This document shows positions 6,155-50,643 of a stretch of DNA of 64,000 bases, piece after piece. How positions within the stretch are numbered: position 1 is the first letter of the stretch; the number at the start of each line of letters is the position of its first letter. Under the pieces are notes generated by a model that saw nothing but the letters and a program-made list of their open reading frames with translations, did no database searches and was not told where the DNA came from. Where the stretch lies: positions 134,945-198,944 of the forward strand of contig JBAZKQ010000001.1 in the NCBI GenBank assembly GCA_041650715.1, given 5' to 3'. The position numbers and the translations under genes were made by a program. The DNA comes from Patescibacteria group bacterium (lineage in GTDB: Bacteria; Patescibacteriota; Patescibacteriia; Patescibacteriales; UBA12465).

Positions 6155-6158
6155 ATAA

Positions 6159-7078: not shown

Positions 7079-7080
7079 TT

Positions 7081-7968
7081 ATGGCCTTAACCAAATTCGG
7101 TAAATATTTATTGCTTATTGGCGTTGTTATTTTGCTGGCCGTGGCGACCAAAGGGGTTTTATATTTGCGTGCTCTGAGACATCAGCCCGCCCCCGCCCCG
7201 GTCACCTTAAAAGCCGAAGAAACCTTAAAGATTATTGAGGGCTGGACGAGCCGCGATATCGCCGATTATTTACAAAAAAGCGGTATTTGGACCAGCACTG
7301 GTTTTTACGAAATTGCCGGCTACCCTTTGCGTGATTATCGGCAAACTAAAAATAAGGATAATGCTCAGCCAAAAGATTTTTCCGCTCAATTTAGTTTTTT
7401 AGCTGATAAACCAACTTATTTTGGTCTTGAGGGCTATCTATACCCGGATACCTATCGTGTTTATGCCAGTTCAACCGTGACGGAAATTATTGAAAAAATG
7501 CTGATTAATTTCGATGCTAAGCTGACGCCCCAGATGCGAGCCGACATCAAGGCACAGGGCCGAACAATCTATGAAGTGATTACGCTGGCCTCGCTGGTTG
7601 AGAAAGAAGCGCCAATCAACTATCAATCCGCCGAGAATAAGGACGCCCATATTATCGCCGGCATATTTTTAAACCGGATTGCTATCGGCCAGGCCCTGCA
7701 ATCGGACGCTACTCTCTCTTATATTTACGGTGACAATAAGCCGGCGCATAGCGGCGACGAACTTGATAGTACTTCTCCCTATAATACTTATAAATATCGC
7801 GGCATGCCGCCTGGTCCGATCTGTAATCCGGGGATAGTCGCTATTGAAGCAGCCATATACCCGGCAGAAACTAATTATAATTATTTTTTAACGACACCGG
7901 ACGGGCGAGTTGTTTATGCGCGGACATACGATGAACATCTAAATAATAAATATAAATATTTAAAATAA
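7081..7968 (+). CDS. mltG: Endolytic murein transglycosylase MltG (YceG-like)
   Basis: 295 aa. N-terminal TM helix, then LEGYLYPDTYRV, LASLVEKEA and YNTYKYRGMPPGPICNPG motifs of the YceG family. Confidence 0.9.
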   Translation: MALTKFGKYLLLIGVVILLAVATKGVLYLRALRHQPAPAPVTLKAEETLKIIEGWTSRDIADYLQKSGIWTSTGFYEIAGYPLRDYRQTKNKDNAQPKDFSAQFSFLADKPTYFGLEGYLYPDTYRVYASSTVTEIIEKMLINFDAKLTPQMRADIKAQGRTIYEVITLASLVEKEAPINYQSAENKDAHIIAGIFLNRIAIGQALQSDATLSYIYGDNKPAHSGDELDSTSPYNTYKYRGMPPGPICNPGIVAIEAAIYPAETNYNYFLTTPDGRVVYARTYDEHLNNKYKYLK

Positions 7969-7977
7969 GTAAAATTT

Positions 7978-14240: not shown

Positions 14241-15537
14241 AACTTATCATATTATTACCATTGGTTGCCAGATGAATGTCGTTGATAGCGAACGTCTGGC
14301 CGCTTTTTTGGAAGACAAGAACTACCGCCCGGAAAAAGATGTGAAAAAAGCGGGAGTGGTTGTTATTAATACTTGCGGTATTAGACAAATGGCCGAAGAT
14401 CGGGCCTATGGCTTAGTTAATACAATTAAAAAAAATAATCCGGCGGTTAAAATTGTGCTTTCCGGATGTCTAAGTAAGCGGGAAGATGTTAAGAAGCGAC
14501 TTAAGGGAAGGGCAGATATTTTTATGCCGATAAATGAGATGCTTCAGCTCCCTGAGCTGCTTAGCGGCAAGGATTTTGTCCCCGAGTTTAGTTTAGATGA
14601 AGTCCGTTTAAAACAAGGCGAGAAGTATTTAAATATTTTGCCGAAACTCACGAAAACATATACCGCTTATGTCCCGATTGGTAATGGCTGTAATAATTTT
14701 TGCTCCTATTGTGTCGTCCCTTATGCGCGCGGGCGCGAGGTTTATCGGCCAGCTAAAGATGTAATCTCTGAAGTTAAAAGCCTAATTGCCCGCGGCTATA
14801 AAGAGGTCATGCTGATTGCGCAGAATGTAAATAGCTATCATGATAAAAATTATGATTTTCCGAAATTATTATCCGCGGTTGCTAAAATCCCTGGCGATTT
14901 TTGGCTGAGGTTTTCTTCAAGTCACCCGAAAGACATGAGCGATGCCTTAATTAAAGTTATTGGGTCATCAGACAAAATTTGCGCGCATTTGCATTTGGCC
15001 GTTCAGTCCGGGGACGATGAAGTCTTAGAGGCGATGAACCGGAAATATACCGCTGCGCATTATGAAAAGCTGATTGAAAAGGTGCGCAAAGCCAAGCCGG
15101 GAATTGCAATTACGACGGACGTTATCGTCGGTTTTCCGGGAGAGACTAAAAAACAATTTGAAAATACGGCCAAGCTTTTTCGAAAAATTAAATTTGATTT
15201 AGCTTATATCTCTCAGTATAGTCCGCGTCCCGGTACCGTTTCGGCAAAAATGGATGATAACGTAACTCGAATTGAAAAGAAGAGAAGAGAGGACGCGATT
15301 GATACAATTTTGAAGAAGACCGCGCTCGCTCATAATAAAAAATATATCGGTCGGGATATTACCGTGCTTTTGGAAGGAGTTAATAAGCGGGGTAAATATT
15401 ACGGAAAGACAAGCACCTACCAAACAGTTTTGGTTCGTACGCCGAAAAAAGTTAATCAGAAATTAATTGGTACTTTCGTAAAAGTAAGAATTGCTGAAAT
15501 TTTACCTTTTGCGCTTGAGGGGGATTTGGTGAAATAA
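14224..15537 (+). CDS. miaB: tRNA-i6A37 methylthiotransferase
   Basis: 437 aa. UPF0004 N-domain (YHIITIGCQMN), radical-SAM CNNFCSYCVVPYARGRE, and a C-terminal TRAM domain. Directly upstream of miaA. Confidence 0.92.
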   Translation: MKKINKTYHIITIGCQMNVVDSERLAAFLEDKNYRPEKDVKKAGVVVINTCGIRQMAEDRAYGLVNTIKKNNPAVKIVLSGCLSKREDVKKRLKGRADIFMPINEMLQLPELLSGKDFVPEFSLDEVRLKQGEKYLNILPKLTKTYTAYVPIGNGCNNFCSYCVVPYARGREVYRPAKDVISEVKSLIARGYKEVMLIAQNVNSYHDKNYDFPKLLSAVAKIPGDFWLRFSSSHPKDMSDALIKVIGSSDKICAHLHLAVQSGDDEVLEAMNRKYTAAHYEKLIEKVRKAKPGIAITTDVIVGFPGETKKQFENTAKLFRKIKFDLAYISQYSPRPGTVSAKMDDNVTRIEKKRREDAIDTILKKTALAHNKKYIGRDITVLLEGVNKRGKYYGKTSTYQTVLVRTPKKVNQKLIGTFVKVRIAEILPFALEGDLVK

Positions 15538-32795: not shown

Positions 32796-32875
32796 ATATT
32801 CGGGTAATATCTGAACATCTATAATATAAAGTATTTATTTAATTTTGGGAAGGGGTCGGCCAAGAGGATGGGGTG

Positions 32876-32905
32876 ATATAAAAAAGGAGCCGGGTTGGGG
32901 CTCCT
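32876..32905 (-). terminator. Intrinsic terminator after the 168-aa gene
   Basis: 7-bp stem aggagcc/ggctcct with a 7-nt loop. The T-run is on the minus strand (plus-strand A-run 32876-32885). Confidence 0.6.
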
Positions 32906-32936
32906 GTACTTTGTTTAGAATTGATTTCTACGGCAA

Positions 32937-33443
32937 TTATATTGACCGGATTATCTCTTTAAGAAGGAATAGGTTTTTTCTCAATATTTCCCTTTCTTTT
33001 ATTTCTTCAGACCTATCCGCGGCACATTCTTCCTGATAGGCAGATAGATTTGCCTGAATGTTCAGGATGTTTTTTTCTCTTTCAGCCATTTCCCCCGGAA
33101 TACTTTTTATTCTCTCGGTAATAATAGTCACATATTCAGCGGCAATTTTCATCCGTAATTCGACTGAGTCTTTGACACCGGCGGCCTTAAATATTTTAAG
33201 CGGTGCAAAGAAAAATATTAATATTATCAGTCCAAAAAAAATAACAGAGACAATAGTAAACATGATCTCGTTAAGGTGGCCATTGAAGAACACGGCAATA
33301 ATAAAGCTAATCAGGATTATAAATAATAATACCCGTTGGATAAGCAAATTATTTTTGTTGGCAATGCTTTCTTTAACATTCATTTCGGCTTCAAGTTGAA
33401 GTCCGGCGCTGAGCGAGTTGAGGCTTAGGGGTTTTTCTTCCAT
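32937..33443 (-). CDS. Hypothetical 2-TM protein with C-terminal coiled coil (paralog 2)
   Basis: 168 aa with two hydrophobic helices. Its C-terminal tail AAEYVTIITERIKSIPGEMAEREKNI...LFLLKEI aligns by eye with TEYLRLVAERIESYPDDIKDIEESI...LNLLKEIK of the adjacent gene. Confidence 0.6.
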   Translation of the reverse strand: MEEKPLSLNSLSAGLQLEAEMNVKESIANKNNLLIQRVLLFIILISFIIAVFFNGHLNEIMFTIVSVIFFGLIILIFFFAPLKIFKAAGVKDSVELRMKIAAEYVTIITERIKSIPGEMAEREKNILNIQANLSAYQEECAADRSEEIKEREILRKNLFLLKEIIRSI

Positions 33444-33478
33444 TGCTAAAGTTTTTAGGTTAGTGTTTTTGGGAAATT

Positions 33479-33991
33479 TTATTTAATTTCTTTGAGCAAA
33501 TTCAGTTCGTGCACATGACTTTCGATTGTTTTTTCGTATTCCTGAATGTCTTCCTCGCATTCTTTAAAGTGTTCCTTAAGAACAGACTTAGCTTGTTCGA
33601 TTGATTCTTCTATATCTTTAATATCGTCCGGGTAGGACTCAATTCGCTCGGCGACCAGTCTAAGATACTCGGTCTGCACGCGATAATTAAATTTTGTATT
33701 TTTTTTAATTCTTATCGCGTCGATTATACGTACAGGTAGCCCTGTAAAAAAAACAACTATGGAGATTAATAAAAGAATTGTCAGGACCAGGTTGTGAATT
33801 TTGATGGCACTGATGTGAATTCTATCAAGCGGTTGAGTTTTTGCGAAACCCATCAAATAGACGAGTAGAATTAGGATTGAAACAAAGAGTGCAATATAGC
33901 TAATTTTAAGGCGTCGCTCCGATATGGCATAGATGATATTGTTCTCAGCCTCCTGATAAATTTCTTGCTTTAATTCGTCGAGTGTTTTCAT
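33479..33991 (-). CDS. Hypothetical 2-TM protein with C-terminal coiled coil (paralog 1)
   Basis: 170 aa. Same architecture as 32937-33443. Confidence 0.6.
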   Translation of the reverse strand: MKTLDELKQEIYQEAENNIIYAISERRLKISYIALFVSILILLVYLMGFAKTQPLDRIHISAIKIHNLVLTILLLISIVVFFTGLPVRIIDAIRIKKNTKFNYRVQTEYLRLVAERIESYPDDIKDIEESIEQAKSVLKEHFKECEEDIQEYEKTIESHVHELNLLKEIK

Positions 33992-34114
33992 GATTTCTTT
34001 AGGGTTTTTGGGGTTATTTTTAGGTTAATTATTTTAATTTTAAAGGTTCAATTTTAACTTTCAATCTTAATACAATTTTGTATTTATGTCAATATCTCAA
34101 AAAGGGCTGCTGAC

Positions 34115-34150
34115 CATAAAAAAATAAGCCCCAAAAGAGGCTTATTTTTC
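34115..34150 (-). terminator. Intrinsic terminator downstream of tRNA-Lys
   Basis: aaataagcc/ggcttattt stem at 34122-34147, with the T-run on the minus strand. Confidence 0.55.
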
Positions 34151-34153
34151 TTG

Positions 34154-34226: not shown

Positions 34227-34305
34227 ATAAACAAAAAGGCTAATTCAAGCCAGTTTATTCTAAAGTGATAATATCAAAACTTTTTTAATTTGACAAGCCT
34301 TGAAG

Positions 34306-35280
34306 CTATCGGGTCTTTAAATATTTAAGGATTGTCGGGATGCCGGCCGCAATCGGCAGGGCCAGGAAGGCGCCGGGGATGCCGAAAAGGATGGTGCCGA
34401 TGATAACGGCAATGAAACTAAGGAATGGGATAAGGTCGAGAACCTGCTTATAAATAAGTGGGGAAATAATATTATTTTCAAACATTTGGTAGGCGATAAA
34501 GAGGATTACAACCAGGAGACCAGCCAGGGGAGATATTGAGAAACCGATAATTACGGCCGGGATGGCGCCGATAGTACTGCCGATTAAAGGAAGTAAATCG
34601 AAGATGCCAGCGAAGATAGCTAAGGGTAAAGCGAAGGGGACTTTCATGATCAAGAGTCCGGAAAAGATGACGACCATACAAATAAAAGAAATGAGGAGAT
34701 TGCCGCGGATATAGAGGCCGCTGATCCTTGCCAGTTCCGAGAAAATTTTTTCTATTTTTTTGCGATCTTGCGCCGGGATAAGGGAAGAGATAATTGAATG
34801 CAAGCGCTCGCCGTCAACCAGTAGATAAAAAATCATGAAAACAAGAGTAATGGTCTGAAAGAAAAAATCAGTAATCAGGGAAGTGGAGCTCAGGATATAG
34901 GAAATGTTATTTTGGAAATATTGGGCGAGATTAATATTACGGATTTCAGACGGGATAAAACTATAAGAATTTAAACTGTGAGAAACTTCATTCATGATGC
35001 CGGGAAGCTGGGCGGCGAAAGTCGGGATGACCGAAATTAAAACATAAATAAGCGGCAAGACTAAGCCGATAATAACCAAGGCGGCGGCGATATTTAAATT
35101 TAGCCGGAGTTTTTTATTAAGCCAAACGACAAGCGGATCAAGCGCGGCCGCGCACATTAAGGCAGTAATGGTTAAAATGATAATGACGGATAATTTCCAG
35201 ATAAGTAAAATAACAACCGCGATTAAAATCAAAGTGTAAATTGTTTTGGGCGAAAGCCGAAACTCAATTTTTGGTGCCAT
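34306..35280 (-). CDS. AI-2E family transporter (PerM/UPF0118)
   Basis: 324 aa with about 8 TM helices. The characteristic C-terminal block is GIFDLLPLIGSTIGAIPAVIIG. Confidence 0.85.
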   Translation of the reverse strand: MAPKIEFRLSPKTIYTLILIAVVILLIWKLSVIIILTITALMCAAALDPLVVWLNKKLRLNLNIAAALVIIGLVLPLIYVLISVIPTFAAQLPGIMNEVSHSLNSYSFIPSEIRNINLAQYFQNNISYILSSTSLITDFFFQTITLVFMIFYLLVDGERLHSIISSLIPAQDRKKIEKIFSELARISGLYIRGNLLISFICMVVIFSGLLIMKVPFALPLAIFAGIFDLLPLIGSTIGAIPAVIIGFSISPLAGLLVVILFIAYQMFENNIISPLIYKQVLDLIPFLSFIAVIIGTILFGIPGAFLALPIAAGIPTILKYLKTR

Positions 35281-35355
35281 AAAAAAATGATTATGTTTAT
35301 ATTATAATATTAAATCGTTATGGCGTATAGAGTGGCGCAAATAATTCAGAAGAAA

Positions 35356-36063
35356 TTAGACAAACGCTTCCGCTTCGCCGCTCCGGATTAATTCTCCGAT
35401 TACTTGAGCGACTTTATCTGCCGAGTCGATGACCAGCGACGGATCACGTCTGGCGGCGCTATCCGTTACCCATTGCGGACGAGTGCCCAGAGAGTTTTTT
35501 CCGAAATTAGTTTCCGTCATTTTGGGCATAATTGAACTGATAATTATTTTGTCGGCTGCCAACTCTTGGCGAGCTGTATAGCTAAGCGCGTTTAAGGCGT
35601 ATTTGCTTGAGCTATAGGCAGCCATACCGGGATAATAATGTTTCGTAACGGCCGAGCTCACATTAATTATTTGGCCGCCGCCCTGTTCGCGCATAATTGG
35701 TATAAGCACCTGCATCATGCGTAAGGCCCCATAAAGATTTAATTCCATAATTTCGCGATATTCGTCGATATTTATTTTTTCTACCGGGCCATATATGCCT
35801 TGGCCGGCGTTATTAATTAATATATCTATCCGGCTATATTTATTTAAAGTTTGAGCGATTAGATTGGTAATATCATTCTCTTGGCGTAGGTCGCCTTTAA
35901 TCGCCAAGGCGCCTTTTAGACCGGCAGCGAGTTCTTTTAATTTTTCTTCTGAACGCGCTATCAATACAACTTTAGCGCCTTGGTCCGCTAAATATTTGGC
36001 CGTGGCCGCGCCAATTCCTTGGGAGGCGCCGGTTACAATTATTACTTTGTCTTTAATTTCCAT
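35356..36063 (-). CDS. Short-chain dehydrogenase/reductase (SDR) family oxidoreductase
   Basis: TGASQGIGAATA Rossmann motif, NNAG, and the catalytic YSSSK. Confidence 0.92.
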   Translation of the reverse strand: MEIKDKVIIVTGASQGIGAATAKYLADQGAKVVLIARSEEKLKELAAGLKGALAIKGDLRQENDITNLIAQTLNKYSRIDILINNAGQGIYGPVEKINIDEYREIMELNLYGALRMMQVLIPIMREQGGGQIINVSSAVTKHYYPGMAAYSSSKYALNALSYTARQELAADKIIISSIMPKMTETNFGKNSLGTRPQWVTDSAARRDPSLVIDSADKVAQVIGELIRSGEAEAFV

Positions 36064-36229
36064 ATGGTTGATGTTAATTGTTATAAATGAGTCGATTATT
36101 AATACGCTTGAGAGACAGATTTAGTTGTGGGCCTCTTGAAATTGTTAGCTATTTGTGATTAAATGAATAATCAATCGTATTTTAAAAACAAGTTAAGCAA
36201 ATTAATATCAACCAAAAAATCGTAAAAAA

Positions 36230-36457
36230 ATGGAAACAAAAAGAACTAAAGAAGATGCTCAGCAAGAATTAATCGAAAAATTCGGGCTGAGAAAAACTTC
36301 AGACTTTCAGTTGGCCTTGCAACAAGGCAAAATTGAATTAGCTGAAGAATGGCTAAATTATATTGTTGAAAACAAAATGCGTTTTCCTCAATATTTATCC
36401 ACTTGGGATAATTGGTTGAATGATCGTCAAAGAGAGCTGGCTGAAGCGAAAAAATAG
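36230..36457 (+). CDS. Hypothetical small protein
   Basis: 75-aa ORF followed by a strong terminator. A TTGAAA-N17-TTAAAT promoter-like site lies upstream. No recognisable motif. Confidence 0.45.
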   Translation: METKRTKEDAQQELIEKFGLRKTSDFQLALQQGKIELAEEWLNYIVENKMRFPQYLSTWDNWLNDRQRELAEAKK

Positions 36458-36471
36458 ATTTGTAGTTAATC

Positions 36472-36503
36472 AAAAGGACATGTGCCAAACATGTCCTTTT
36501 AAA
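36472..36503 (+). terminator. Intrinsic terminator
   Basis: Perfect 11-bp stem aaaggacatgt/acatgtccttt, loop gccaa, then a T-run. Confidence 0.7.
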
Positions 36504-36585
36504 TTCTATCTTGGATACAAGAATAGCTATTAGTTATTCTATGAAATGGCAATTTTTCCAAGAATATTGAGATATGGCTGAAAAC

Positions 36586-36614
36586 TTGACAAAAAGCATA
36601 TCTTATGATACAAT
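36586..36614 (+). promoter_or_regulatory. Near-consensus sigma70 promoter (TTGACA-N17-TACAAT)
   Basis: TTGACA at 36586-36591, a 17-nt spacer, and TACAAT at 36609-36614. Confidence 0.6.
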
Positions 36615-36635
36615 TATTTGTTCATTAACATCGGG

Positions 36636-36695
36636 TAATTGCAGAAACTATAAGGAGGATTACGAAAGTAGTAAATCTTATAGTTTCTGTAATTA
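36636..36695 (+). promoter_or_regulatory. Long 19-bp stem-loop in the 5' leader; the loop displays AAGGAGGA and an inner GAAA-capped mini-helix
   Basis: The left arm 36636-36654 (taattgcagaaactataag) pairs with the right arm 36677-36695 (cttatagtttctgtaatta), with one G-U pair. The 22-nt loop is gaggattacgaaagtagtaaat and contains tac-gaaa-gta. Confidence 0.6.
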
Positions 36696-36715
36696 ATCAC
36701 ATAAATAAATACATC

Positions 36716-37126
36716 GTGGAAAAACTGGTTCAATTTTGGCACCATCTGCTTGGCATGCCCGCCGATGAAATTGTCATAAACAGCATTGCGATGCTGTTCG
36801 GACTATTTGTAATTATCACCTTAATTCTGTTGCTTGTACTTCTATTTTCCTGGCTTAACTTTTGTTTCATGCCAGAGATTGAAGGAGTGGGGACGGTAAT
36901 GGGTAAAATTGAGAATGCCGCCTCCAAGACATACTCCGTTGCTGCCGGCAGGGGCGGAGTTTTCTTTCCCGCTGAACACCGAATATATCTAATGTTTCGG
37001 GGAAAAAAACGATCTCTGTTGGTCTCCAAAGATAATTTTCAAGGATTAAAACTGGGAGATGAAGTAAGAGTCTTTTACGAAAAAGGACTCGTAGGAGGAA
37101 TTAGAATTAGCAGGATCGCTGATTAG
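36716..37126 (+). CDS. Hypothetical membrane-anchored small protein (DUF2500-like architecture, tentative)
   Basis: 136 aa from GTG 36716, or 123 aa from ATG 36755. One TM helix (IAMLFGLFVIITLILLLVLLF), then a beta-rich domain ending GDEVRVFYEKGLVGGIRISRI. No SD sequence before either start. Confidence 0.6.
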   Translation: MEKLVQFWHHLLGMPADEIVINSIAMLFGLFVIITLILLLVLLFSWLNFCFMPEIEGVGTVMGKIENAASKTYSVAAGRGGVFFPAEHRIYLMFRGKKRSLLVSKDNFQGLKLGDEVRVFYEKGLVGGIRISRIAD

Positions 37127-37149
37127 ATTAAGCGATACTTGGACCAAAT

Positions 37150-37185
37150 AAAGCTGTTTCGTAAGGAGCAGCTTTTTTATTTTGG
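37150..37185 (+). terminator. Intrinsic terminator
   Basis: aaagctgtttc-gtaa-ggagcagcttt stem with a GNRA-type loop, followed by tttttatttt. Confidence 0.7.
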
Positions 37186-37263
37186 TTGAGTAGGAATATA
37201 AAAGTTTAATGAGATTATTGAGGGGGTTGAGAGAAGGGGTATTTTAGACTTAATATAAATTTG

Positions 37264-37293
37264 TTGACTATTTAGAAAGCCAAGATATATAAT
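37264..37293 (+). promoter_or_regulatory. Sigma70-like promoter (TTGACT-N18-TATAAT)
   Basis: TTGACT at 37264-37269 and TATAAT at 37288-37293. Confidence 0.55.
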
Positions 37294-37299
37294 TAAATT

Positions 37300-37567
37300 A
37301 AGAGGGAATAATACAATAGTGATTTCCGCCAAGTGGGCAGCCCAAAGGAAGCAGGCCAAATCCACTAGATGAAAGTTTCGTACTTTGAACTAGCCGAGGT
37401 TATAGGATTGTCTAAAAAGAAGATTTCTGGAGAGATCGACAACACCTGAAAATTTATGAGCATCTTCGGATCTCATCGCCTAAACCCTCCCAAAAAAGCT
37501 TCAGAACAAAGTAACTTGGACAGAAGCTAAAATAAGAAGACCTATTCTCCGGAAGGTCTTTTTTTCT
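37300..37567 (+). ncRNA. Promoter-to-terminator transcription unit without a long ORF (candidate ncRNA or decayed small gene)
   Basis: Bounded by the promoter at 37264-37293 and the terminator aagacct-attctccgga-aggtctt plus T-run at 37537-37567. It holds only micro-ORFs: 17 codons from GTG 37318, and 26 codons at 37369-37449. Confidence 0.35.
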
Positions 37568-37613
37568 TAAACTAAAAGAAATTTTGTATTTACGAAATCT
37601 CTTTATTTATATG

Positions 37614-37657
37614 TAGTCCCCATGGGAATCGCCCCCCCCGTTACCAGGATGAGAACC
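37614..37657 (-). repeat. Degenerate copy of the 3' half of tRNA-Glu (att-like direct repeat or tRNA remnant)
   Basis: tagtccccatgggaatcgccccccccgttaccaggatgagaacc compared with 41787-41829 tagtccctaggggaatcgaacccctgttaccaggatgagaacc. The 18-nt core is perfect (37640-37657 equals 41812-41829). The T-arm is disrupted by substitutions and one extra C. Confidence 0.7.
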
Positions 37658-37758
37658 GATAGGGCGGCATAAGCGAAGAAGAGGGCAAGAGGCGAGGCAT
37701 TATTCGAACTTTTTTATAATAAAATTGCTAATATTAAATTTTGTTATACAGTTTTGAT

Positions 37759-38523
37759 TTACGACAAATATCCCACGACCGTTTTAGCCACACATTCTCT
37801 AACAACGTAACGACCAATTAAATTCTTTTTATATAGATTGTATATATCGGAATAATATTTTTCCTTTTGTGTGTCCGAAAGGAGATTCCAATTGCTCATC
37901 GATTTAATACGGAGCATCGCCTGTGCCAGAGTATACTTTTCTTGGAAATAAAAAGGACGACGCGTTATCCGGACAAAACCGCTTTTCCCAAGAACCGCAG
38001 CGGCATCATGATTTTTCGCGGCATCGGATTTTTTTCCGAAATATCTATTCATTATCACTCGCTGCCCCCTCTGTAGTTTCTCAACCCGCGGGTCTTTAGA
38101 CTTGGTAAGCGTTTTTTGTACGGCAATAAAAATTCCCCCTTTTTTTAAAACTCTTTTCATCTCATTTACGGATTTAGCATCATCAAACCAATGAAAGGCC
38201 GTAAAGGCTGTAATTATATCAAATTGCCATTTACGAAAAGGGAGCTTGCTTGCCGGTGCTACTATATAAGATATACCGTCCGCACGATTTTTCGCTATTT
38301 GTATCATTTCCACGCCTTTATCCGAACCAATAGCTTTATAACCATAATGTTTAAGTTGGCGGGTCGAAATTCCTGTTCCGCAACCGACATCAAGAATCTG
38401 GCTCTTCTTATCAGTAACTATTCCTTTTAAAAACCTAAACAATTCCTCCGGGTATCCCCGCCGGGCAGCATCATAATCTTTACTGAGAACATCAAAATTG
38501 CTCCTTTCCATATCTAATATCAT
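37759..38523 (-). CDS. Class I SAM-dependent methyltransferase
   Basis: ILDVGCGTGISTRQL is motif I. DIITAFTAFHWF...LKKGGIFIA is the Methyltransf_11-like core. The substrate cannot be determined. Confidence 0.85.
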   Translation of the reverse strand: MILDMERSNFDVLSKDYDAARRGYPEELFRFLKGIVTDKKSQILDVGCGTGISTRQLKHYGYKAIGSDKGVEMIQIAKNRADGISYIVAPASKLPFRKWQFDIITAFTAFHWFDDAKSVNEMKRVLKKGGIFIAVQKTLTKSKDPRVEKLQRGQRVIMNRYFGKKSDAAKNHDAAAVLGKSGFVRITRRPFYFQEKYTLAQAMLRIKSMSNWNLLSDTQKEKYYSDIYNLYKKNLIGRYVVRECVAKTVVGYLS

Positions 38524-38708
38524 AACAAAAAATCGCTAAGATGGCGACTTTAATGTATCGGCGTGGAGGAGGGGATGAGATTTTTTAATTGCTCTTTAAC
38601 TTTTGGTTAACCATTTCACAAAAGTCCGGTGTAAACCTATTGTCTTGGCGAAGACCAGTGTATCTCGCTCGCCGACTGTTCGATTTCCATAGTTGTGAAT
38701 TGTTAACT

Positions 38709-38738
38709 AAAAAAGCCACGGCATTCGCCGGGCTTTTT
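38709..38738. terminator. Bidirectional intrinsic terminator downstream of the 312-aa gene
   Basis: aaaaagcc(a)cgg-cattcg-ccgggcttttt hairpin flanked by an A-run and a T-run. Confidence 0.55.
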
Positions 38739-38828
38739 AGTTATTGGCTTTAAAGTCTAGAATTTCTGAAAATTTTGATGGTATTATTGGGGAAATCGAG
38801 AAGTGGGCGGAAATTTTGAGATAAAAAT

Positions 38829-39767
38829 TTATTCAATAACCTTTATACAGAACGCGAACCTATGGTATATAACGTTTTTACCTTTAACAAATGCCTCAAT
38901 ATTATAGTTTCCTGATTTTAGAAAAGTCAAACTAATTTTATTTTTTAATTGATTTTCATGGGCTTGTACAATTTCGCTGTTAAGTCTAATAATTTGTTTA
39001 TCTTCCGTTGCATAAATTGAAAGATTGGTGGTCTTCTCGACTAAAAAGTCCTGCGAAAGAATAAGTCCTATCTCGACTTTTTCGGCCATAATATCACTGC
39101 TATTGTTTATGGAGACGGGGATATCATATTTTTTATTTACAGAAAAATCAAATGTTTCATCTTTTTTTAGATATTTGCCATAAAAAATTAATCCAATTTT
39201 TTCTTCCTTAATAAATAAATCACTAACACTGTTACCATTTTTGGTGGATATATCGGATAATAATGATATTACTTTTTCCTCATAATCTTTTTTTGTTTGG
39301 TTTATTGAACCGAATACCTCAATTAAGATTAAAATGCTTTTCCATAAAATATATATTCCTATAATAAAGGCTATCAAGCTTAATGCTAACAGTAATAATC
39401 TATATTCTATTGCAAAAATTATAAGCGTAGCCATTAATAAGATAAATGCGAAAAAAAAGGGAATAAATATTTTTACAAATAATTTGTCTGGCTTTAAATA
39501 ATTTATTTTAACTTCTGCAATTCTTATATTTTTCTTTAAAGTTTTTATCGTTTTTTGCAAACCAGCGTAATCTAAATTTTTTTCCTCCTCCATTTTTTTA
39601 GTTTCGTTCACAAGGTTTTGATCACTTTGTTTCTTTTCGTTTTCATATTTTTCCAGAAGAAATTTTGAACCTTCTGAAAATATAGATAAAGCAATCGCCA
39701 AAATTGGAAGAACAAAACTCATTATAGTCAATATAAATGAACCATAAAGTTGCAAAGCACTATCCAT
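38829..39767 (-). CDS. Hypothetical membrane protein (TM, coiled coil, 2 TM, beta-rich C-domain)
   Basis: 312-aa ORF with very AT-rich codon usage. Hydrophobic helices lie at roughly residues 10-30, 100-122 and 125-150. A charged coiled segment spans 35-95, and about 160 aa are C-terminal beta-rich. No recognisable motif. Confidence 0.65.
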   Translation of the reverse strand: MDSALQLYGSFILTIMSFVLPILAIALSIFSEGSKFLLEKYENEKKQSDQNLVNETKKMEEEKNLDYAGLQKTIKTLKKNIRIAEVKINYLKPDKLFVKIFIPFFFAFILLMATLIIFAIEYRLLLLALSLIAFIIGIYILWKSILILIEVFGSINQTKKDYEEKVISLLSDISTKNGNSVSDLFIKEEKIGLIFYGKYLKKDETFDFSVNKKYDIPVSINNSSDIMAEKVEIGLILSQDFLVEKTTNLSIYATEDKQIIRLNSEIVQAHENQLKNKISLTFLKSGNYNIEAFVKGKNVIYHRFAFCIKVIE

Positions 39768-39874
39768 ATTTTTTATTGGTTAGTTTAATTAAGACATTAC
39801 TAGTTGGGATAACTATTAATATATAAAGATGAAAACCCTATTTTTCCTTTAATTTATGGGAAGTATTTAAACTA

Positions 39875-39903
39875 TTGACACTTTTTATAATAAGCTATAT
39901 AAT
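39875..39903 (+). promoter_or_regulatory. Perfect consensus sigma70 promoter (TTGACA-N17-TATAAT)
   Basis: TTGACA at 39875-39880, a 17-nt spacer ctttttataataagcta, and TATAAT at 39898-39903. Confidence 0.65.
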
Positions 39904-39909
39904 ATTAAT

Positions 39910-39969
39910 AGCTGACTGGAAACAGTCGCAATCATTTTATAGCTTAGGGGCTCTTTGGGAGTCCTTTTT
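39910..39969 (+). ncRNA. Candidate ~60-nt small RNA (GNRA hairpin plus intrinsic terminator)
   Basis: Lies downstream of the consensus promoter. Hairpin 1 is gc(t)gactg-GAAA-cagtcgc at 39911-39929. Hairpin 2 is gggctc-tttgg-gagtcc at 39948-39964, followed by ttttt at 39965-39969. The G-U pair and the T-run exist only on the plus strand. There is no ORF. Confidence 0.5.
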
Positions 39970-39973
39970 GCTA

Positions 39974-40714
39974 TTAAATCTCTTTTTTCCAACAAATAAA
40001 ATCTTTGATTTTTCTAATATCAAAAATTAGCAAACCGTCCGGACATAAATTATTTAATTCTCTGGATACCCTACGAGATGTTGCAAATAGAATGACTTTT
40101 TTGCCATTTACTAATAAATGTTTTAGGGGTTCAGAAAAATCACTATCTCCGCTCCATAAAATATAAGTATCAATATGGTTTTTATCATGGTCAACAAGTA
40201 TATCTCGACCAATCTCAACGTCAAAATTACATTTTCTATCTTCTAACATATATTCCCCACGAGCGTTCATCTCCTTAAACTTGTTATTCAAATATTCAAT
40301 TGTTGCGACATCGTATTTTCTAATTAAAGATGTTCTAATAAATTGATTTAACAAATCAGTTGATTGGGCAGAAACACTGCTGGCATCAATAGAAAAAGTC
40401 ATGATTTTTACTAACTTTGTTCTTAAATCATAGCCACATTTAGTCATTTCGCGGATCATTGTCTCTGAATTTTGGTCGCCGGTAAGGGTTCCGGCGTATA
40501 TTTTAATGGATTTAATGTTGTCAAAAGAATCTAAAAATTGCTTTAATCTCTTAATATCTATGTGCCAATTTAAATAAGTAGACCAAGGTTTTACATTGGC
40601 ATAATCAATATAGATATTAACATTTCCAGTCAATAAGTTTTCTAACTCAGCGATAATTTTTTTACCTTCATCGCTTGCTATTTCTCCTATTCTTTTGGTC
40701 TTTGCCGTAAACAT
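39974..40714 (-). CDS. NYN-domain (LabA/PIN-like) predicted ribonuclease
   Basis: 246 aa. VNIYIDYANV is the first acidic motif. NFDVEIGRDIL and ILWSGDSDFSEPLKHLLVNGKKVILFA match the NYN/LabA-like pattern (D...D...SGDSDF...GK.V). Confidence 0.8.
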   Translation of the reverse strand: MFTAKTKRIGEIASDEGKKIIAELENLLTGNVNIYIDYANVKPWSTYLNWHIDIKRLKQFLDSFDNIKSIKIYAGTLTGDQNSETMIREMTKCGYDLRTKLVKIMTFSIDASSVSAQSTDLLNQFIRTSLIRKYDVATIEYLNNKFKEMNARGEYMLEDRKCNFDVEIGRDILVDHDKNHIDTYILWSGDSDFSEPLKHLLVNGKKVILFATSRRVSRELNNLCPDGLLIFDIRKIKDFICWKKEI

Positions 40715-40718
40715 ACCT

Positions 40719-41096
40719 TTATTTTTTTTCTTTTAAATCAATAAAATAAATTATTCCGTAATTTTCATCATTTATTTCAGTCGGTTCATATTTTCCTTCA
40801 TACTTTTTATTATCAATTTCAAAACTTCTAAAAAAACTTCTGACCACAATACTGGCTGTTTGCCTGTTATAGCCAAAAATTATTTTAAAGCTTGATTTCC
40901 CCATCCTTTCTTTTGTGAATTGGAAACCCACTCTGTTGTTTCCATCTCCATTATCGTATAACAAAGATACAAAGTTAAACTCTGAAATATTATATTTTCT
41001 TACAAATCCGCCAGCAAAGCCAAATGATTGAGATTTTGTAAGAGAAATTGAATTTGTTAATTTTGCTCCGACATCTTCGAATTTTATAAACGCCAT
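40719..41096 (-). CDS. Hypothetical 125-aa protein, upstream partner of the NYN gene
   Basis: ORF ends 4 nt before the NYN start. It is beta-rich (SISLTKSQSFGFAGGFVRKYNI...VGFQFTKE...SFKIIFGY...ASIVVRSFF), loosely reminiscent of swapped-hairpin or AbrB-like pseudo-barrels. No firm assignment. Confidence 0.6.
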   Translation of the reverse strand: MAFIKFEDVGAKLTNSISLTKSQSFGFAGGFVRKYNISEFNFVSLLYDNGDGNNRVGFQFTKERMGKSSFKIIFGYNRQTASIVVRSFFRSFEIDNKKYEGKYEPTEINDENYGIIYFIDLKEKK

Positions 41097-41124
41097 ATTT
41101 TAATAGTTATCTTATAACTTTATT

Positions 41125-41153
41125 AGTTTATCAAATTAAAAGATGTATGTCAA
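41125..41153 (-). promoter_or_regulatory. Sigma70-like promoter for the 125-aa/NYN cassette (TTGACA-N17-TAAACT)
   Basis: On the minus strand, TTGACA corresponds to plus-strand tgtcaa at 41148-41153. A 17-nt spacer follows, then TAAACT (plus-strand agttta at 41125-41130). About 30 nt upstream of the ATG at 41096. Confidence 0.5.
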
Positions 41154-41504
41154 ATGGAGATTAACCATATATGAAAAATAATGAAATATGTTGAAAAGTT
41201 ATATATTATTAGCTAAATTGTAATTTAAGTAAATGTTATCTTTGTTTTATAAAGTTATCCACAATATGCGTTATTAAGGATAATTTTGATTATTTACTAA
41301 TAAAATCCGCCTCTTGATTCACCCCCTATTTTCTGCCATTACGCTCTCATAGACTTATTAATAAACATAATAAGGCAGGAAGATAAAACATAGCTACGGC
41401 TAGTCAGATTACGGACAATAATTTAAAAAAATGCAGTCTTTAAATAATATAATAAATATAAGCAAAGTCTAAATTTTTGCCAACTCAACTATAAACACGA
41501 GCAA

Positions 41505-41750
41505 TATATCCGGACGGATGGCTTGTGTTTTTTTGTTTGGCCGAGTTGCCCCTCTTGAGGTTGGCCTTGCCATGTATTTCTGAACAACCTCGCCTCACTC
41601 GCGGACCAGTCCGCTCGTTCGTTGTCGCGGTCAGCGTCCGAAGCTCCCCCGGAGCTTCGTCCGACGCTCGCCACGCCTGCGTCCCGCTGGCCGCAGGCTA
41701 AGCTCGCTTCTGACCTGTTCGATTCCCCTCGGCTAACGCCGTCTAATTAA
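41505..41750. other. GC-rich, hairpin-dense non-coding element (candidate structured RNA; strand unresolved)
   Basis: There is an abrupt rise in G+C relative to the AT-rich surroundings. Helices found: 41557-63/41585-91 (gaggttg/caacctc), 41601-05/41610-14, 41634-47/41651-67 (14 bp with a 3-nt bulge), and 41675-81/41692-98 (gcctgcg/cgcaggc). The enclosing pair is 41539-45/41728-34. No credible ORF. Confidence 0.4.
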
Positions 41751-41780
41751 AAAATGCCCAGCTAACGCTGAGCACTTTTT
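41749..41780 (-). terminator. Intrinsic terminator downstream of tRNA-Glu (bidirectional geometry)
   Basis: tgcccagc-taac-gctgagca hairpin flanked by aaaaaa and ttttt. The single mismatch becomes a G-U pair only on the minus strand. Confidence 0.65.
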
Positions 41781-41786
41781 AATTAG

Positions 41787-41858
41787 TAGTCCCTAGGGGA
41801 ATCGAACCCCTGTTACCAGGATGAGAACCTGGCGTCCTAACCGTTAGACGAAGGGACC
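41787..41858 (-). tRNA. tRNA-Glu (anticodon CTC), CCA not encoded
   Basis: Reverse complement folds as GGTCCCT TC GTCT AACGGTTA GGAC G CCAGG TTCTCAT CCTGG TAAC AGGGG TTCGATT CCCCT AGGGACT A. 72 nt. Confidence 0.9.
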
Positions 41859-42776
41859 ATTTTTATGGCCGCGGAGGAATTCTTCACTCGCCATAATTTT
41901 CTTGCCTTCAAGTTGTAATTTTAGTATAAGGAGAGATTCTTGTCCACACTGTACGGCCAACTGGCCTTCGTGTAAAAAAGTGGCGCCGGCGGCATGGGTG
42001 TTTATATTTAAAACTTCGCCAGAGACAGCGATAATTTTTAGGGTTTTTCCGCCGGATACGGTGAAAGTCCCCGGCCAGGGATTATAAGCGCGCACCATGC
42101 GCTCGATTTCGACCGCCGATTTCGTCCAGTCAATTTTACCGTCCTCCTTGCTTAAGGTCTTTATATAACTTGCCTGGCTTTCATCTTGACTCTGGGGGAT
42201 TATTTTACCGGCGATAAAATCTTCCAAGGTTGGAATTAATATTTCGGCACCCAGCGCGGATAATTTATCGTGTACGTTTTCTAAACTTTCCGTGCCCGCT
42301 AATTTTATCTTAGCTTGCCGTAGAATCGGTCCGGTGTCAAGGCCGGCCTCCATGCGCATAATTGTGACGCCGGTTTCTTTATCGCCATTTAAAATCGGCG
42401 CGTTTAAGACTGCCGCGCCTCGATATTTAGGCAGGAGGGAAGCATGGACATTAACGCAGCCATAGGTCGGAATATCTAAAATGCTTTGGGGGATTATTTT
42501 GCCATAAGCAATCACCACAATTAAATCCGGTTGGAGATTTTTGAGGTTTTCTAACTCATCTTTAAGTTTAGTCGGTTGGAATATTGCTAAATTATTTTCC
42601 AGTGCCAATTTTTTTATAGGCGACGGGGTAAGGACCTGGTTGCGTCCGACTGGCTTGTCCGGCTGCGTAAAAACACCGACGATTTCAAAAATATCGCTGC
42701 TAATGAGTCGTGAGAGGCCGGGCAAAGCGAACTCCGGGGTGCCCATAAATATTACTTTGTATCTTTTTCTTTCCAT
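41844..42776 (-). CDS. fmt: Methionyl-tRNA formyltransferase
   Basis: KVIFMGTPEFALPGL...NVHASLLPKYRGAAVLNAPILNGD. The start is set at the internal Met (cat at 42774-42776), giving 310 aa. The stop codon lies 15 nt inside the 5' end of tRNA-Glu. Confidence 0.92.
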   Translation of the reverse strand: MERKRYKVIFMGTPEFALPGLSRLISSDIFEIVGVFTQPDKPVGRNQVLTPSPIKKLALENNLAIFQPTKLKDELENLKNLQPDLIVVIAYGKIIPQSILDIPTYGCVNVHASLLPKYRGAAVLNAPILNGDKETGVTIMRMEAGLDTGPILRQAKIKLAGTESLENVHDKLSALGAEILIPTLEDFIAGKIIPQSQDESQASYIKTLSKEDGKIDWTKSAVEIERMVRAYNPWPGTFTVSGGKTLKIIAVSGEVLNINTHAAGATFLHEGQLAVQCGQESLLILKLQLEGKKIMASEEFLRGHKNGPFV

Positions 42777-48006: not shown

Positions 48007-50643
48007 TTAAGTGACAAGAATCGCTACCTTTTCTTTATCGGTCAGATCGATTCTTACCTTATCGCCTTCTTTAACTTTACCTTCAATAATATCAAGGGCC
48101 AGTTCATCAAGAATCATGGTTTGAATTATGCGTTTGAGCGGGCGGGCGCCGTAAGTAATATCATAGCCTTTCTCCGCCAATAATTTTTTGACTTTCGGGC
48201 TGATGCGCAGAGCGATATTTTTGGTGTGCAAACGCTTTTCGACTTTGATGAGCTCAAGATCAACAATTTTCTCGAGCGCCGACGGAGTCAAGCTATGGAA
48301 AAGCACAATTTCGTCGATGCGATTTAAGAATTCAAGCTTGAAATGATTTTTTAAAATCTTGTCGATTTTTTCTTTCATTTCATCCGAACGAAGCTTGGCA
48401 CTTTCTTGTTTATCGCTGCCATCGGTAAAGCCGATGGAATATTGTTTAATGATTTCGTTGCCCAGATTAGAAGTCATGATGATAATTGTGTTTTTGAAGT
48501 TGACTGTCCGTCCCTTAGAATCAGTCAGCCGTCCATCATCTAAAATTTGGAGAAGAACATTAAACATATCCGGGTGAGCCTTCTCGACTTCATCAAAGAG
48601 CACAACGCTATACGGATGACGGCGGACCTTATCGGTTAATTGGCCGCCATCGTCGTGGCCGACATAGCCGGGAGGCGAGCCGATTAATTTAGCCACGGAA
48701 TGTTTTTCCATAAATTCGCTCATATCTAAGCGGATTAGGGCTTTCTCATCGTCAAACATAAATTGCGCGAGCGCTTTAGCCAGCTCAGTTTTGCCGACAC
48801 CGGTCGGGCCGACGAATAAAAAGGAGCCGATTGGTTTCTTCTCTTCATTAATGCCGGCGCGGGAACGGCGCAGGGCGTTAGCGACGGCCTTGATCGCCTC
48901 TTCTTGACCGACGACTTCCTGGTTGAGTTTATTTTCCGCCTCACTTAATTTCATGATTTCATCTTGAAGCATACGGTTGACCGGAATGCCGGTCCAGCGG
49001 GCGACTACTTTAGCGATATCTTCTTCGTCAACTTCTTCTTTCAAAATACGTTGGCCTTTTTTCTGGATTTTAACCAGTTCGTCTTGCGATTTTTTAATTT
49101 TATTTTCGAGTTCAGGAATCAAAGCATACCTAATCTTTGCCACTTCGGTTAAGTCGGCCCCTTGGCGCTGAGTAATCTCCGCCCGGATTTTCAGATCCTC
49201 AATTTCTTTCTTGGCTAATCTAATTTGGGAGATAATATTTTTTTCATTATTCCAATGCAGTTCTAACTGGTTGGCTTTCTCCTTGATTTTTGCCAGCTCA
49301 GAATTAATCGCTCGTAATCTGGCCGATTTTTTGTCGGTCGTCATAATTCCGGCCTTGTTTAGTTCGAGCTGATTTATTTTACGCTTGAGCTGATCAAGCT
49401 CATCCGGCATTGAATCAATTTCCATGCGCAGGGAAGAGGTCGCCTCATCGATTAAATCGACCGCTTTATCCGGCAGGAAACGATCGCTGATATAACGATT
49501 GGATAATTTAGCCGCGGCAATGACCGCGTTATCGGTGATGCGGACGCCGTGATGGACTTCATATTTTTCTTTTAGGCCGCGTAACATAGAAATCGTATCT
49601 TCCACGCTGGGTTCGTTAACCATAATTGGCTGAAAGCGTCGTTCGAGCGCGGCGTCTTTCTCGATATATTTTTGGTACTCTTTGGTCGTGGTCGCGCCGA
49701 TTGTTCGGAGTTCGCCGCGCGCTAAGGCCGGCTTTAACATATTAGAGGCGTCCATGGATCCCTCCGATGCCCCCGCGCCGATAAGAGTATGAAGCTCGTC
49801 GATAAAAAGAATGATGCGGCCGTTTTGCGACTTAACTTCTTTTAAGACGGCCTTTAAGCGATCTTCGAATTCACCGCGGAATTTTGCGCCCGCGACTAAA
49901 GCCCCCAGGTCGAGTGTAATGACTTCTTTATTTTTTAAATTTTCCGGGACATCGCCGGCGATTATTCTTTGCGCCAAACCTTCAACGATTGCGGTTTTAC
50001 CGGTGCCGGCTTCGCCAATAAGTACGGGATTGTTTTTTGTGCGACGTAAGAGCACCTGCATAATGCGGCGAATTTCTAAATCGCGGCCAATAACCGGATC
50101 AAGCTTTTCTTGTCGGGCCAGTTCGGTAAGATTAGTCGTATATTTTTCCAAAACTTTATATTTATTTTCCGGGAAGGGATCATTAATGGTTTGGCTGCCG
50201 CGCAATTCTTTCAATATTTCTTTGACGTTTTGATATTCAACCCGGAAATCCAAAAGCACACCCTGGGCCGGAGAAGGCACGCCAATCAGACCGAGCAGAA
50301 TATGTTCGGTGGAAATAAATTCGTCCCCCATCCCGTCCGCCTCTTTTTGGGCACGTTCTAAAATCAAGGCGGTTTCAGCCGTTCCGGATACAGCCTGCAC
50401 CGGACCTTTATTAGGGCTAACTTTAACGCGCGGTAATTTTTGGATAACTTTAATGGTAAATTCCTCGATGATTTCCGGATCAATTTTCATTTTTTCGAGG
50501 ATTGGCTTAATTAGACTTTCGTTTTGCTGGAGCAGGGAAAGCAGAATATGGAGCGCTTCAATATTCGCCTGGCCGTAAGCGGAGGCGAGAATTTGGGCGT
50601 TGATGATAGCTTCTTGAGATTTATCGGTAAATTTATTGAACAT
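48007..50643 (-). CDS. clpB: ClpB disaggregase
   Basis: 878 aa. Clp_N domain, D1 ([15 protein letters not shown]; Walker [11 protein letters not shown]), a long coiled-coil middle domain, and D2 ([14 protein letters not shown]; [11 protein letters not shown]). Confidence 0.96.

Follow-up and report, generated by a model that had tools for sequence, protein, structure and literature searches.

Islands inserted in transfer RNA (tRNA) genes, with an attachment site centred on the anticodon and a displaced 3' fragment of the tRNA, were reportedly described by Reiter in 1989 and by Williams in 2002. Cis-mobilizable elements (CIMEs) and tandem accretion at one attachment site are known from Streptococcus thermophilus, with ICESt3 and CIME19258 as examples; CIMEs presumably arose through deletions in larger integrative elements. 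The locus described here lies in a window of 64,000 nucleotides (nt), the whole stretch that was analysed (positions 134,945 to 198,944 of contig JBAZKQ010000001.1, assembly GCA_041650715.1), from a Patescibacteria group bacterium. It is the interval downstream of a tRNA-Glu(CTC) gene that is bracketed by this gene and by a second copy of its 3' half 4.1 kb away. A first-pass annotation, made from the sequence alone, had read 37658-41786 as a horizontally acquired islet that lacks an integrase. This stands insofar as the content is accessory and absent from relatives, whereas the picture of a single islet with five cargo items does not: the interval is probably a stack of at least two relic, recombinase-less insertions at a tRNA-Glu hotspot.

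In the Islander collection, a 3' fragment was found for 3760 of 3919 islands, and the 2083 islands with anticodon-centred sites form the commonest class (PMC4383910). Islander requires an integrase gene, and according to its authors, writing in 2014, tyrosine recombinases were the only ones known to use tRNA genes as targets (PMC4383910). That statement is contradicted by the phiRSM filamentous phages, since these rolling-circle replicons integrate through their own serine recombinase and use a 13-nt core that is the 3' end of tRNA-Ser(UCG) (PMC3816273). The island PYG1 of Pyrococcus yayanosii is flanked by 44-bp repeats (PMC9897764).

The present locus resembles such tRNA islands in having an intact tRNA gene and a direct 44-nt copy of its 3' part that starts in the anticodon stem, in lying downstream of the tRNA, in its partly foreign composition and in its absence from relatives. 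It differs from them in having no integrase gene, in the decay of the fragment by ~15%, in the composite nature of its 4.1 kb and in its host, a member of the Patescibacteria with a genome of ~0.76 Mb.

The putative integration target is the intact tRNA-Glu(CTC) gene at 41786-41858 on the minus strand, one of three tRNA genes in the window, which is recognised by ARAGORN and by the Rfam tRNA model (62.5 bits) and is identical or near-identical in sequence across relatives. The fmt open reading frame (ORF) as called overlaps the 5' end of this gene by 15 nt (41844-41858) with its stop and last few codons, and the spacing between fmt and tRNA-Glu is likewise tight in relatives. A repeat search paired 37635-37657 with 41807-41829 (23 nt, 96% identity, direct orientation; BLAST E of the 23-mer alone 1.3e-5), and gapped alignment lengthened the copy to 44 nt, 37614-37657 against 41786-41829, both on the minus strand. 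These correspond to tRNA nt 30-73, that is, the last two pairs of the 5' anticodon-stem strand, the loop, the 3' strand, the variable loop, the T-arm and the 3' acceptor strand. The proximal copy would be the attL-type side, and the distal copy the displaced 3' half and attR-type scar of an older event. A cognate fragment in direct orientation to an intact tRNA gene on the same replicon is the Islander-type arrangement, and a block of identity that runs from the anticodon stem-loop through the tRNA 3' end is that of the anticodon type (class A).

The perfect core of the repeat is the 18-mer GTTACCAGGATGAGAACC, while the T-arm of the distal copy is decayed and reads CCCCCCCC instead of AACCCCT; the distal half has diverged by ~15% overall, and by a rough estimate zero changes in 18 nt at this decay rate would have p ~0.07. 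The local alignment score of the repeat is 58, compared to a mean of 19.3 (standard deviation 1.9) and a maximum of 23 when the tRNA was aligned with 400 random 4.2-kb chunks of the same window and the best score of each was kept. Chance resemblance, for which only the short length speaks, is refuted by this score, by the expected orientation and position of the copy and by its recurrence in L007, a relative whose fmt is 48% identical. The identity steps from 18/18 to background at tRNA nt 29/30, within the 5' strand of the anticodon stem. In these respects (the direct repeat at 4.1 kb, its perfect core and decayed distal T-arm, and the collapse of similarity inside the anticodon stem) the first-pass annotation was borne out.

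The position of this boundary recurs in other sequences. L007 carries an orphan copy of tRNA-Glu nt 30-69 in direct orientation, 2.7 kb downstream of the intact tRNA; next to the copy comes a homolog of the terminator that the intact gene has, and upstream of the orphan half there is no similarity to the tRNA 5' half (p 0.16). The L007 interval has two main ORFs and shows no recombinase domain by Pfam, nor a recombinase among ORFs of at least 70 amino acids (aa). Furthermore, two viral contigs from IMG/VR, L176 and L178, hold orphan tRNA-Glu(CTC) halves that start at nt 30 with GGTTCTCATCCTGGTAA, end at CCA, are not detected as tRNAs by ARAGORN and immediately adjoin tyrosine recombinase genes (PF00589 Phage_integrase, E 5.6e-32 and 9.7e-18). 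In alignment A5, all six sequences enter the shared block at one common column. Nucleotide 30 appears to be the recombination boundary because the copies of L007, L176 and L178 begin there, the viral ones beside tyrosine integrases, which makes three independent observations. The repeat has the format of a classic anticodon-type attachment scar, in line with the tyrosine-recombinase style that had been proposed for it. Searches of viral contigs at large gave no relative of the NYN-domain protein of the interval, no match to the motif of its GC-rich element and none to the 28-mer of the Patescibacteria-type half-tRNA.

An alternative is that the distal copy is a decayed full-length tRNA-Glu paralog from an old tandem duplication, and that the genes between were accrued in another way. 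The residual 5' similarity noticed at first pass is present, with 17/24 identities collinear to tRNA nt 5-28 upstream of the distal copy, but marginal (p 0.015 against genome segments, 0.05 against shuffles); it falls in a GC-rich stretch of 45 nt on the minus strand (37658-37702), which takes the place of the tRNA 5' half and lies outside the homology block shared with contig L185 (see below). The decay of the T-arm is also about equal to that of the putative 5' half. This account is distinctly unlikely in view of the abrupt step from 18/18 to background at nt 29/30, of the same boundary in L007 and in the two integrase-adjoining viral halves, and of the fact that no relative has two tRNA-Glu(CTC) genes here. 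Neither Rfam nor ARAGORN finds a tRNA at the distal copy: at E <= 10, Rfam matched only the real tRNA-Glu over 37300-42000, and relaxed ARAGORN runs (intron and tmRNA options, lowered thresholds) gave spurious calls that overlap the real tRNA only and, at the distal copy, just one low-threshold, intron-containing call that was judged spurious. Cloverleaf remnants on both halves, as expected of a tRNA pseudogene, were thus not seen by either program.

With the attachment-scar reading, the sequence beyond the displaced half may be assigned as well. At 37540-37613, an AT-rich hairpin and a G+C hairpin with a T-run can be read directly from the sequence, and the leader TAAATAAAGAG of this region resembles the TAAnTAAAAAG leader that follows tRNA-Glu in relatives; the region is probably the original terminator region of tRNA-Glu. 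On the plus strand, 37264-37575 holds a promoter-like TTGACT-18-TATAAT (11/12), followed ~250 nt on by a G+C hairpin with a T-run; no convincing ORF lies inside, and a small RNA may be transcribed from this stretch, which separates p136 from the displaced half. In L005, a GC-rich element of ~110 nt lies ~35 nt past the tRNA-Glu terminator (5090-5240) and contains TTCGATTCCC, a 29-nt GC hairpin and the same last 13 nt as the tRNA; another terminator comes after it. This element probably represents a scar of the T-loop type into which a hairpin was inserted.

The composition of the interval is split. Mean gene GC content in the window is 42.0% (standard deviation 4.5), and the only outliers are three genes at 38829-41096, encoding a membrane protein (26.9%), an NYN-domain nuclease (30.8%) and the small protein p125 (28.3%), with z from -2.5 to -3.4; the tetranucleotide distance peaks at 39001-41000 (z 5.0). 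The interval had been described as an AT-rich islet, which is true for these three genes but not for the methyltransferase gene, which at 39.6% GC is no outlier. The most GC-rich 200 nt of the window (41551-41750, 62%) are also found here.

At the inner edge of the AT-rich part lies a segment (38657-38757, minus strand) with a second terminator (38711-38745, minus strand) and, on the same strand, the start of a degenerate second copy of the GC-rich element (motif GGAAATCGAACAG); from 38746 leftwards it reads TAACTAAAAAGCCCGG. When the native 120-nt tail of tRNA-Glu in L090 was searched with nhmmer against the whole window, the best match was 38742 to 38657 (E 1.1e-5) and the present tRNA-proximal flank came second (E 2.8e-3), with column identities to the L090 flank of 68% and 61%, respectively. 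Alignment A2 defines the common module as the tRNA 3' end or its position, TAAnTAAAAAG-hairpin-TTTTTT and ...GGrGAATCGAAC...GCGAG, in four copies: the tRNA-proximal flank of the window, window 38775 to 38560, the distal flank of the L181 element and the native flank of L090. The better fit of the L090 tail to 38657-38742 than to the present flank argues that 38657-38757 is an earlier, ancestral downstream flank of tRNA-Glu, which would have been pushed away by the insertion of 38758-41785. What had been taken for a candidate small RNA (sRNA) at ~38.55-38.76 kb would be this displaced terminator and flank.

The AT-rich 3.0-kb cassette appears, on these grounds, to be a separate and later insertion at the extreme 3' end of the tRNA. 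In the simpler scheme of a single 4.1-kb tyrosine-recombinase islet, everything would have arrived together at the anticodon loop and the integrase would have been lost later. One clear pair of tRNA halves indeed brackets the whole interval, and no second tRNA fragment is recognisable inside it. Nevertheless, the scheme is unlikely given the sharp compositional split (three genes of 27-31% GC against 39.6% for the methyltransferase), the second terminator and GC-element start exactly at the AT-rich inner edge, which fit the native flank of L090 better, and the nearest kin of the AT-rich part and of the methyltransferase, which are found in two elements at two different tRNAs. The idea of one islet consequently gives way to an AT-rich core that would be a later insertion with its own displaced flank and a methyltransferase with kin in a different element. 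A direct repeat of 17 nt (AAAGTCTAGAATTT...) that bounds the AT-rich core was also considered and is not significant (p = 0.18).

The kin of the later insertion is found in L181, a 17.4-kb JGI contig with a tRNA-Glu(TTC) at 6558-6630. On the opposite strand, a 528-aa ORF (6592-8178) with Resolvase (5e-37), Recombinase (1e-11) and Zn_ribbon_recom domains overlaps this tRNA by 39 nt, its last 12 codons being antisense to it. Next come a rolling-circle initiator (Rep; REP_ORF2-G2P), a hairpin-dense element of 280 nt, a p125 homolog, an N6_N4 methylase with other genes, and block C. Past block C stands GGACTAC, which equals the final 7 nt of tRNA-Glu; a terminator comes next, and the contig ends at the GC-rich element behind it. 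Three blastn blocks connect the two sequences: window 41550 to 40721 with L181 9547-10376 (78%, 850 nt), window 38833 to 38751 with 14331-14413 (81%) and window 41753 to 41634 with 14449-14575 (73%). The second and third blocks are neighbours in L181 but are separated by 2.8 kb in the window, where they flank the AT-rich core, so that the three blocks are arranged as a circular permutation. Block C, the distal cassette end (38751-38833, minus strand; 81% by blastn over 83 nt, nhmmer E 7.7e-9, alignment A2), has its homolog in L181 at the distal end of the element, where it abuts the last 7 nt of tRNA-Glu. The ends and internal modules of the cassette are thus homologous to those of an intact member of an L181-like family, and the flank terminator and GC element match with E 5e-13.

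In the first-pass annotation a tyrosine-recombinase origin had been assumed throughout. The parent of at least the later insertion likely carried a large serine recombinase, as its kin in L181 does, and not a tyrosine recombinase. The phiRSM group would accordingly be the closest described system for the inner cassette: L181 likewise combines a G2P-type Rep with a serine recombinase and sits at the extreme 3' end of a tRNA, with a 7-nt repeat. Unlike the small resolvase-like enzyme of that group, those of L181 and L185 are large serine recombinases of 522-528 aa that contain Recombinase and zinc-ribbon domains; moreover, no phage structural genes were recognised, and the copy in the window has neither recombinase nor Rep.

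The methyltransferase belongs to a second lineage. The block at 37698-38573 on the minus strand, which would be the cargo of the older insertion, contains a gene for a class I S-adenosylmethionine (SAM)-dependent enzyme (37759-38523, minus strand; Pfam Methyltransf_11), a generic member of its class with a partial PADLOC match to mad2. Window 38573 to 37698 matches L185 9938-10807 with 85% identity over 877 nt (86% at the aa level), the closest homolog outside this genome. L185, a contig of 48 kb, belongs to another genome of the same sample; its flanks have ~49% GC, and its methyltransferase sits within a low-GC segment of ~5.8 kb headed by a 522-aa large serine recombinase. The 3' end of this recombinase gene (6141-7709) runs antisense over the entire tRNA-Ser(GCT), and a relative of the L181 hairpin element lies just upstream of it (E 4.3e-8). 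The large serine recombinases of L181 (locus 6558-8178, with the tRNA) and L185 are only 32% identical to each other; both genes run antisense into a tRNA, and therefore the C-terminus in the integrated state would be encoded by tRNA antisense sequence.

No recombinase was found in the interval, in agreement with the earlier reading of the islet. Among the Pfam families of the four interval ORFs there is no integrase (PF00589), a six-frame Pfam search over most of its non-coding DNA returned no family at E <= 1, and a regular expression for tyrosine- and serine-recombinase motifs found nothing in ORFs of at least 100 aa across the whole window. The Pfam tables for ~26.7-64 kb hold no recombinase either, and 1 to ~26.7 kb were covered by the motif search only. 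The serine recombinase and the Rep that are both present in L181 are absent from the cassette at 38758-41785. The result is CIME-like: segments flanked by attachment (att) sites and devoid of recombination and transfer modules stand in tandem at one target. Unlike in CIMEs, the sites here are decayed (beyond the 18-nt core), the targets are tRNA genes and apparently two recombinase classes took part. The array now looks immobile and would at most be moved in trans.

From the format of the scar, the first step would be the site-specific integration of an element in the anticodon-loop region of tRNA-Glu, bringing a new nt 30-73, a terminator, a GC-rich structured module and the methyltransferase, and pushing the original 3' half with its terminator to 37614-37657 and leftwards. 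The recombinase would subsequently have been lost and the displaced half have decayed by ~15%. For the second step homology is observed and the mechanism is conjectural: the 3.0-kb AT-rich cassette would have entered at the extreme 3' end of the tRNA, in the order terminator 1, GC-rich element, leader, p125, NYN nuclease, membrane protein and block C, and moved the earlier terminator and GC-element start to 38657-38757. The cassette probably derives from a family of small integrative elements by loss of recombinase and Rep; L181, at the 3' end of tRNA-Glu(TTC), holds an intact member.

Several observations weigh against this two-step history. The marginal 5'-half similarity beside the distal copy would allow a full-length pseudo-tRNA, and at the distal junction of the cassette the window has AAGCCAA where L181 has GGACTAC, so that this junction appears to hold no recognisable tRNA remnant and the crossover there is placed by position only. 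The L181 contig stops within its flank GC element, a copy that is either chromosomal or part of a further tandem element. The second GC-element copy of the window is 58% identical to the first, its homology being given by nhmmer (E 1.1e-5) through L090 and by collinearity. Furthermore, the recombinase search covered 64 kb of a genome of ~758 kb, and no truly empty site from a genome of the same species is available, the nearest candidate (L097, see below) being a contig of only 1.8 kb that also lacks p136.

The first copy of the GC-rich structured element (GCel-1, 41487-41742) follows terminator 1, a hairpin directly after the tRNA (41743-41785) with a 20-nt inverted repeat of 90% complementarity and T-runs on both strands. 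Compared to shuffled sequences, GCel-1 folds with z -3.6 as RNA of the plus strand, -3.0 for the minus strand and -3.9 as DNA. It has no Rfam match at E <= 10 and no further copy in the window except the degenerate one. Its nhmmer matches are L181 14462-14580 and 9541-9608 (each E ~4e-8), and its start motif shares 25/28 nt with L090. GCel-1 looks like a hybrid: the tRNA-proximal 115 nt fit the L181 flank copy and the last 70 nt fit the L181 internal copy, and its distal end is contiguous with the p125 leader, likewise inside the L181 element. The internal copy of L181 contains several long, nearly perfect hairpins (z -12.7 as single-stranded DNA) and adjoins the Rep gene, and for this reason the module is read as probably origin-like or attachment-flank DNA of replicons, and not as an RNA gene. 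When two of the GC-rich elements are folded jointly by RNAalifold, the closing helix and the first hairpin are conserved, too thin a basis for calling an RNA. The GC-rich RNA-like cargo element proposed earlier would instead belong to such a probably origin-like module, which recurs beside tRNA-Glu and within elements that carry a serine recombinase. That the 45-nt GC-rich stretch might be an inverted repeat of the GC-rich element was also considered; the match is not significant.

The hybrid nature of GCel-1 suggests recombination between element-internal and flank copies of the module, from which, speculatively, the derivative could have originated as a circle. Such a circle would hold the leader, p125, the cargo, block C, the tRNA end and the terminator, without recombinase or Rep, and in its circular form would join the block C end ...CTAGACTTTA to GGACTAC + TAATTAAAAAGTGCTC. 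A wider and doubtful extension of this idea is a Patescibacteria family of small integrative rolling-circle replicons with tRNA-antisense large serine recombinases and the GC-rich module as origin, for which the window cassette, with the module and both ends retained, would be satellite-like, being excised, replicated and transferred in trans by a resident full-length element of the same community.

For comparison of the locus, 18 relatives were retrieved with fmt, ten from genome contigs and eight from metagenome contigs. All share the backbone p265, p95, def, DedA, fmt and tRNA-Glu on one side and, as far as the contigs permit, tRNA-Lys, tRNA-Thr, dnaB, ybaB and recR on the other. The spacing between tRNA-Glu and tRNA-Lys is 7.56 kb here, 4.4 kb in L003, 4.3 kb in L091, 3.3 kb in L004, 2.05 kb in L001, 0.8 kb in L005 and 0.29 kb in L096, where merely 288 nt separate the two genes. 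None of the eight window genes between tRNA-Glu and tRNA-Lys has a homolog in that slot of the 18 relatives, except p75 in L097; in particular, the four genes of the bracketed interval, whose presence in relatives would have spoken against acquisition, are absent from the locus. Other relatives carry different cargo in the slot: MNT/HEPN and a Tlde1-like protein in L002, Fic/Doc and HTH_17 in L003 and L091, and a secreted protein with TSP3 repeats in L007. The variable part had been placed at 37658-41786; instead, the whole interval from tRNA-Glu to tRNA-Lys (34227-41785) varies among relatives, beyond the bracketed 4.1 kb. The stretch downstream of tRNA-Glu seems to be an integration hotspot. 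It resembles defence and accessory hotspot islands in being a conserved slot with different small cargo per relative (MNT/HEPN, Fic/Doc with HTH_17, Tlde1-like, here NYN) and differs from them in that the attachment scars which would explain the turnover are still partly readable.

The search for an empty site in relatives, advised at first pass, succeeded in part: L097 and L096 are near-empty. L097 is the closest relative by fmt (77% over 228 aa), and there, 53 nt past tRNA-Glu and its terminator, lies the stop codon of a gene homologous to p75, whose product has two tandem domains 76% and 69% identical to p75 at the aa level (tblastn); the region is 78% identical by blastn over 212 nt. In L097 (798-1331), the p75 family, which has no Pfam assignment, thus appears as a 177-aa tandem two-domain protein. 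With its homolog directly after tRNA-Glu in L097, p75 (36230-36457, plus strand) is probably part of the original chromosomal flank. Between p75 and the scar lies p136 (36716-37126), for which no homolog was found anywhere searched; used as an empty-site probe, it has no relative in JGI metagenomes. The p136 leader contains a 19-nt inverted repeat of 95% complementarity (36636-36695), downstream of a promoter-like 36586-36614 (TTGACA-17-TACAAT, with a TG extension).

The variability of the entire 7.5-kb interval among relatives also fits a history without any site-specific event, in which foreign DNA, once taken up, replaced the resident stretch through homologous recombination in the conserved flanks (fmt/tRNA-Glu and tRNA-Lys/dnaB) and the scars came with the donor. 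Terminator 1, which is 38/38 identical to the post-tRNA-Glu terminator of L002 although the proteins are far more diverged (fmt just 59-66% identical), can be read in the same way. This history is highly unlikely: it merely shifts the origin of the scars to the donor, where site-specific events would still be required to explain the nt-30 boundary and the junction at block C.

The cargo of the stacked insertions is accessory and probably conflict-related (an NYN nuclease with a small partner, a membrane protein and the SAM methyltransferase), a role in conflict or defence being plausible. An AT-rich non-coding leader (41097-41486, minus strand), conserved with p125 in L181, precedes p125 (40719-41096, minus strand). 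Only seven homologs of this small protein turned up among 5.8 billion sequences, including the L181 protein with 83% identity; its AlphaFold model (predicted local distance difference test score 58) matched no fold, Foldseek finding nothing in the PDB below E 0.2. The nuclease gene (39974-40714, minus strand), 4 nt downstream of p125, encodes a LabA/DUF88-type NYN domain (Pfam NYN 3e-17) and matches HEC-09 (2.6e-8) and NYN (7.6e-7) in PADLOC. Homologs at 60-77% identity occur in Patescibacteria, Omnitrophica and one archaeal metagenome-assembled genome, usually as solitary genes in housekeeping or varied contexts, which makes their neighbourhoods uninformative on the islet. The 312-aa membrane protein (38829-39767, minus strand), whose gene has the lowest GC content of the window, has no family assignment.

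The window sequence forms part of contig k141_1088855 (758 kb) of ENA ERZ27247363, from a Patescibacteria metagenome-assembled genome, and is found 100% identical, in fragments, in the Logan assembly of SRR8542065. A break at 41831, at most 2 nt from the repeat edge, was weighed as a sign of excision and rejected because, if Logan contigs use k = 31, it falls k-1 = 30 nt into the tRNA common to related genomes. One Logan contig spans 38795-41471 and coincides with the AT-rich core.

Islands with tRNA fragments are textbook matter, and the finding itself is ordinary and of local value. It would mean that, behind tRNA-Glu, accretion at a hotspot stays active even in the reduced genomes of host-dependent Patescibacteria, and that island finders which demand an integrase would miss such islets. 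Part of the traffic would consist of small elements with a serine recombinase and a rolling-circle Rep at tRNA 3' ends, documented mainly for phiRSM-type phages. The sRNA candidate and the GC-rich element, reassigned to duplicated attachment-flank or origin-like DNA, need not be chased as novel RNAs. The more interesting lead lies outside the window, in the family of tRNA-targeting elements with large serine recombinase and Rep and in its possible satellite derivatives.

A few further observations concern the neighbourhood. Between tRNA-Thr and tRNA-Lys, the window has 1.36 kb (32796-34152) compared to 8-112 bp in relatives, and this stretch (36.5% GC) encodes two paralogs, of 168 and 170 aa, that share 28% identity (E 2e-13) and have no significant Pfam match; no tRNA-fragment repeat marks the edges of this insertion. 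In L096 (2104-3610), a 425-aa ORF that begins ~150 nt after tRNA-Lys shows HTH_28, HTH_29 and HTH_32 domains at its N-terminus; it is possibly a transposase, but no catalytic domain scored. In L185 (16837-17232), the 5' end of tRNA-Ser(TGA) is repeated over 26 nt at a distance of 280 nt upstream of the intact gene, and an ORF for an 80-aa GIY-YIG protein lies between the two, which resembles a homing-endonuclease insertion that duplicates the tRNA 5' end. Finally, two divergent ClpB-like double-AAA+ genes (878 and 898 aa) are located near each other in the window at 48007-50643 and 51219-53915.

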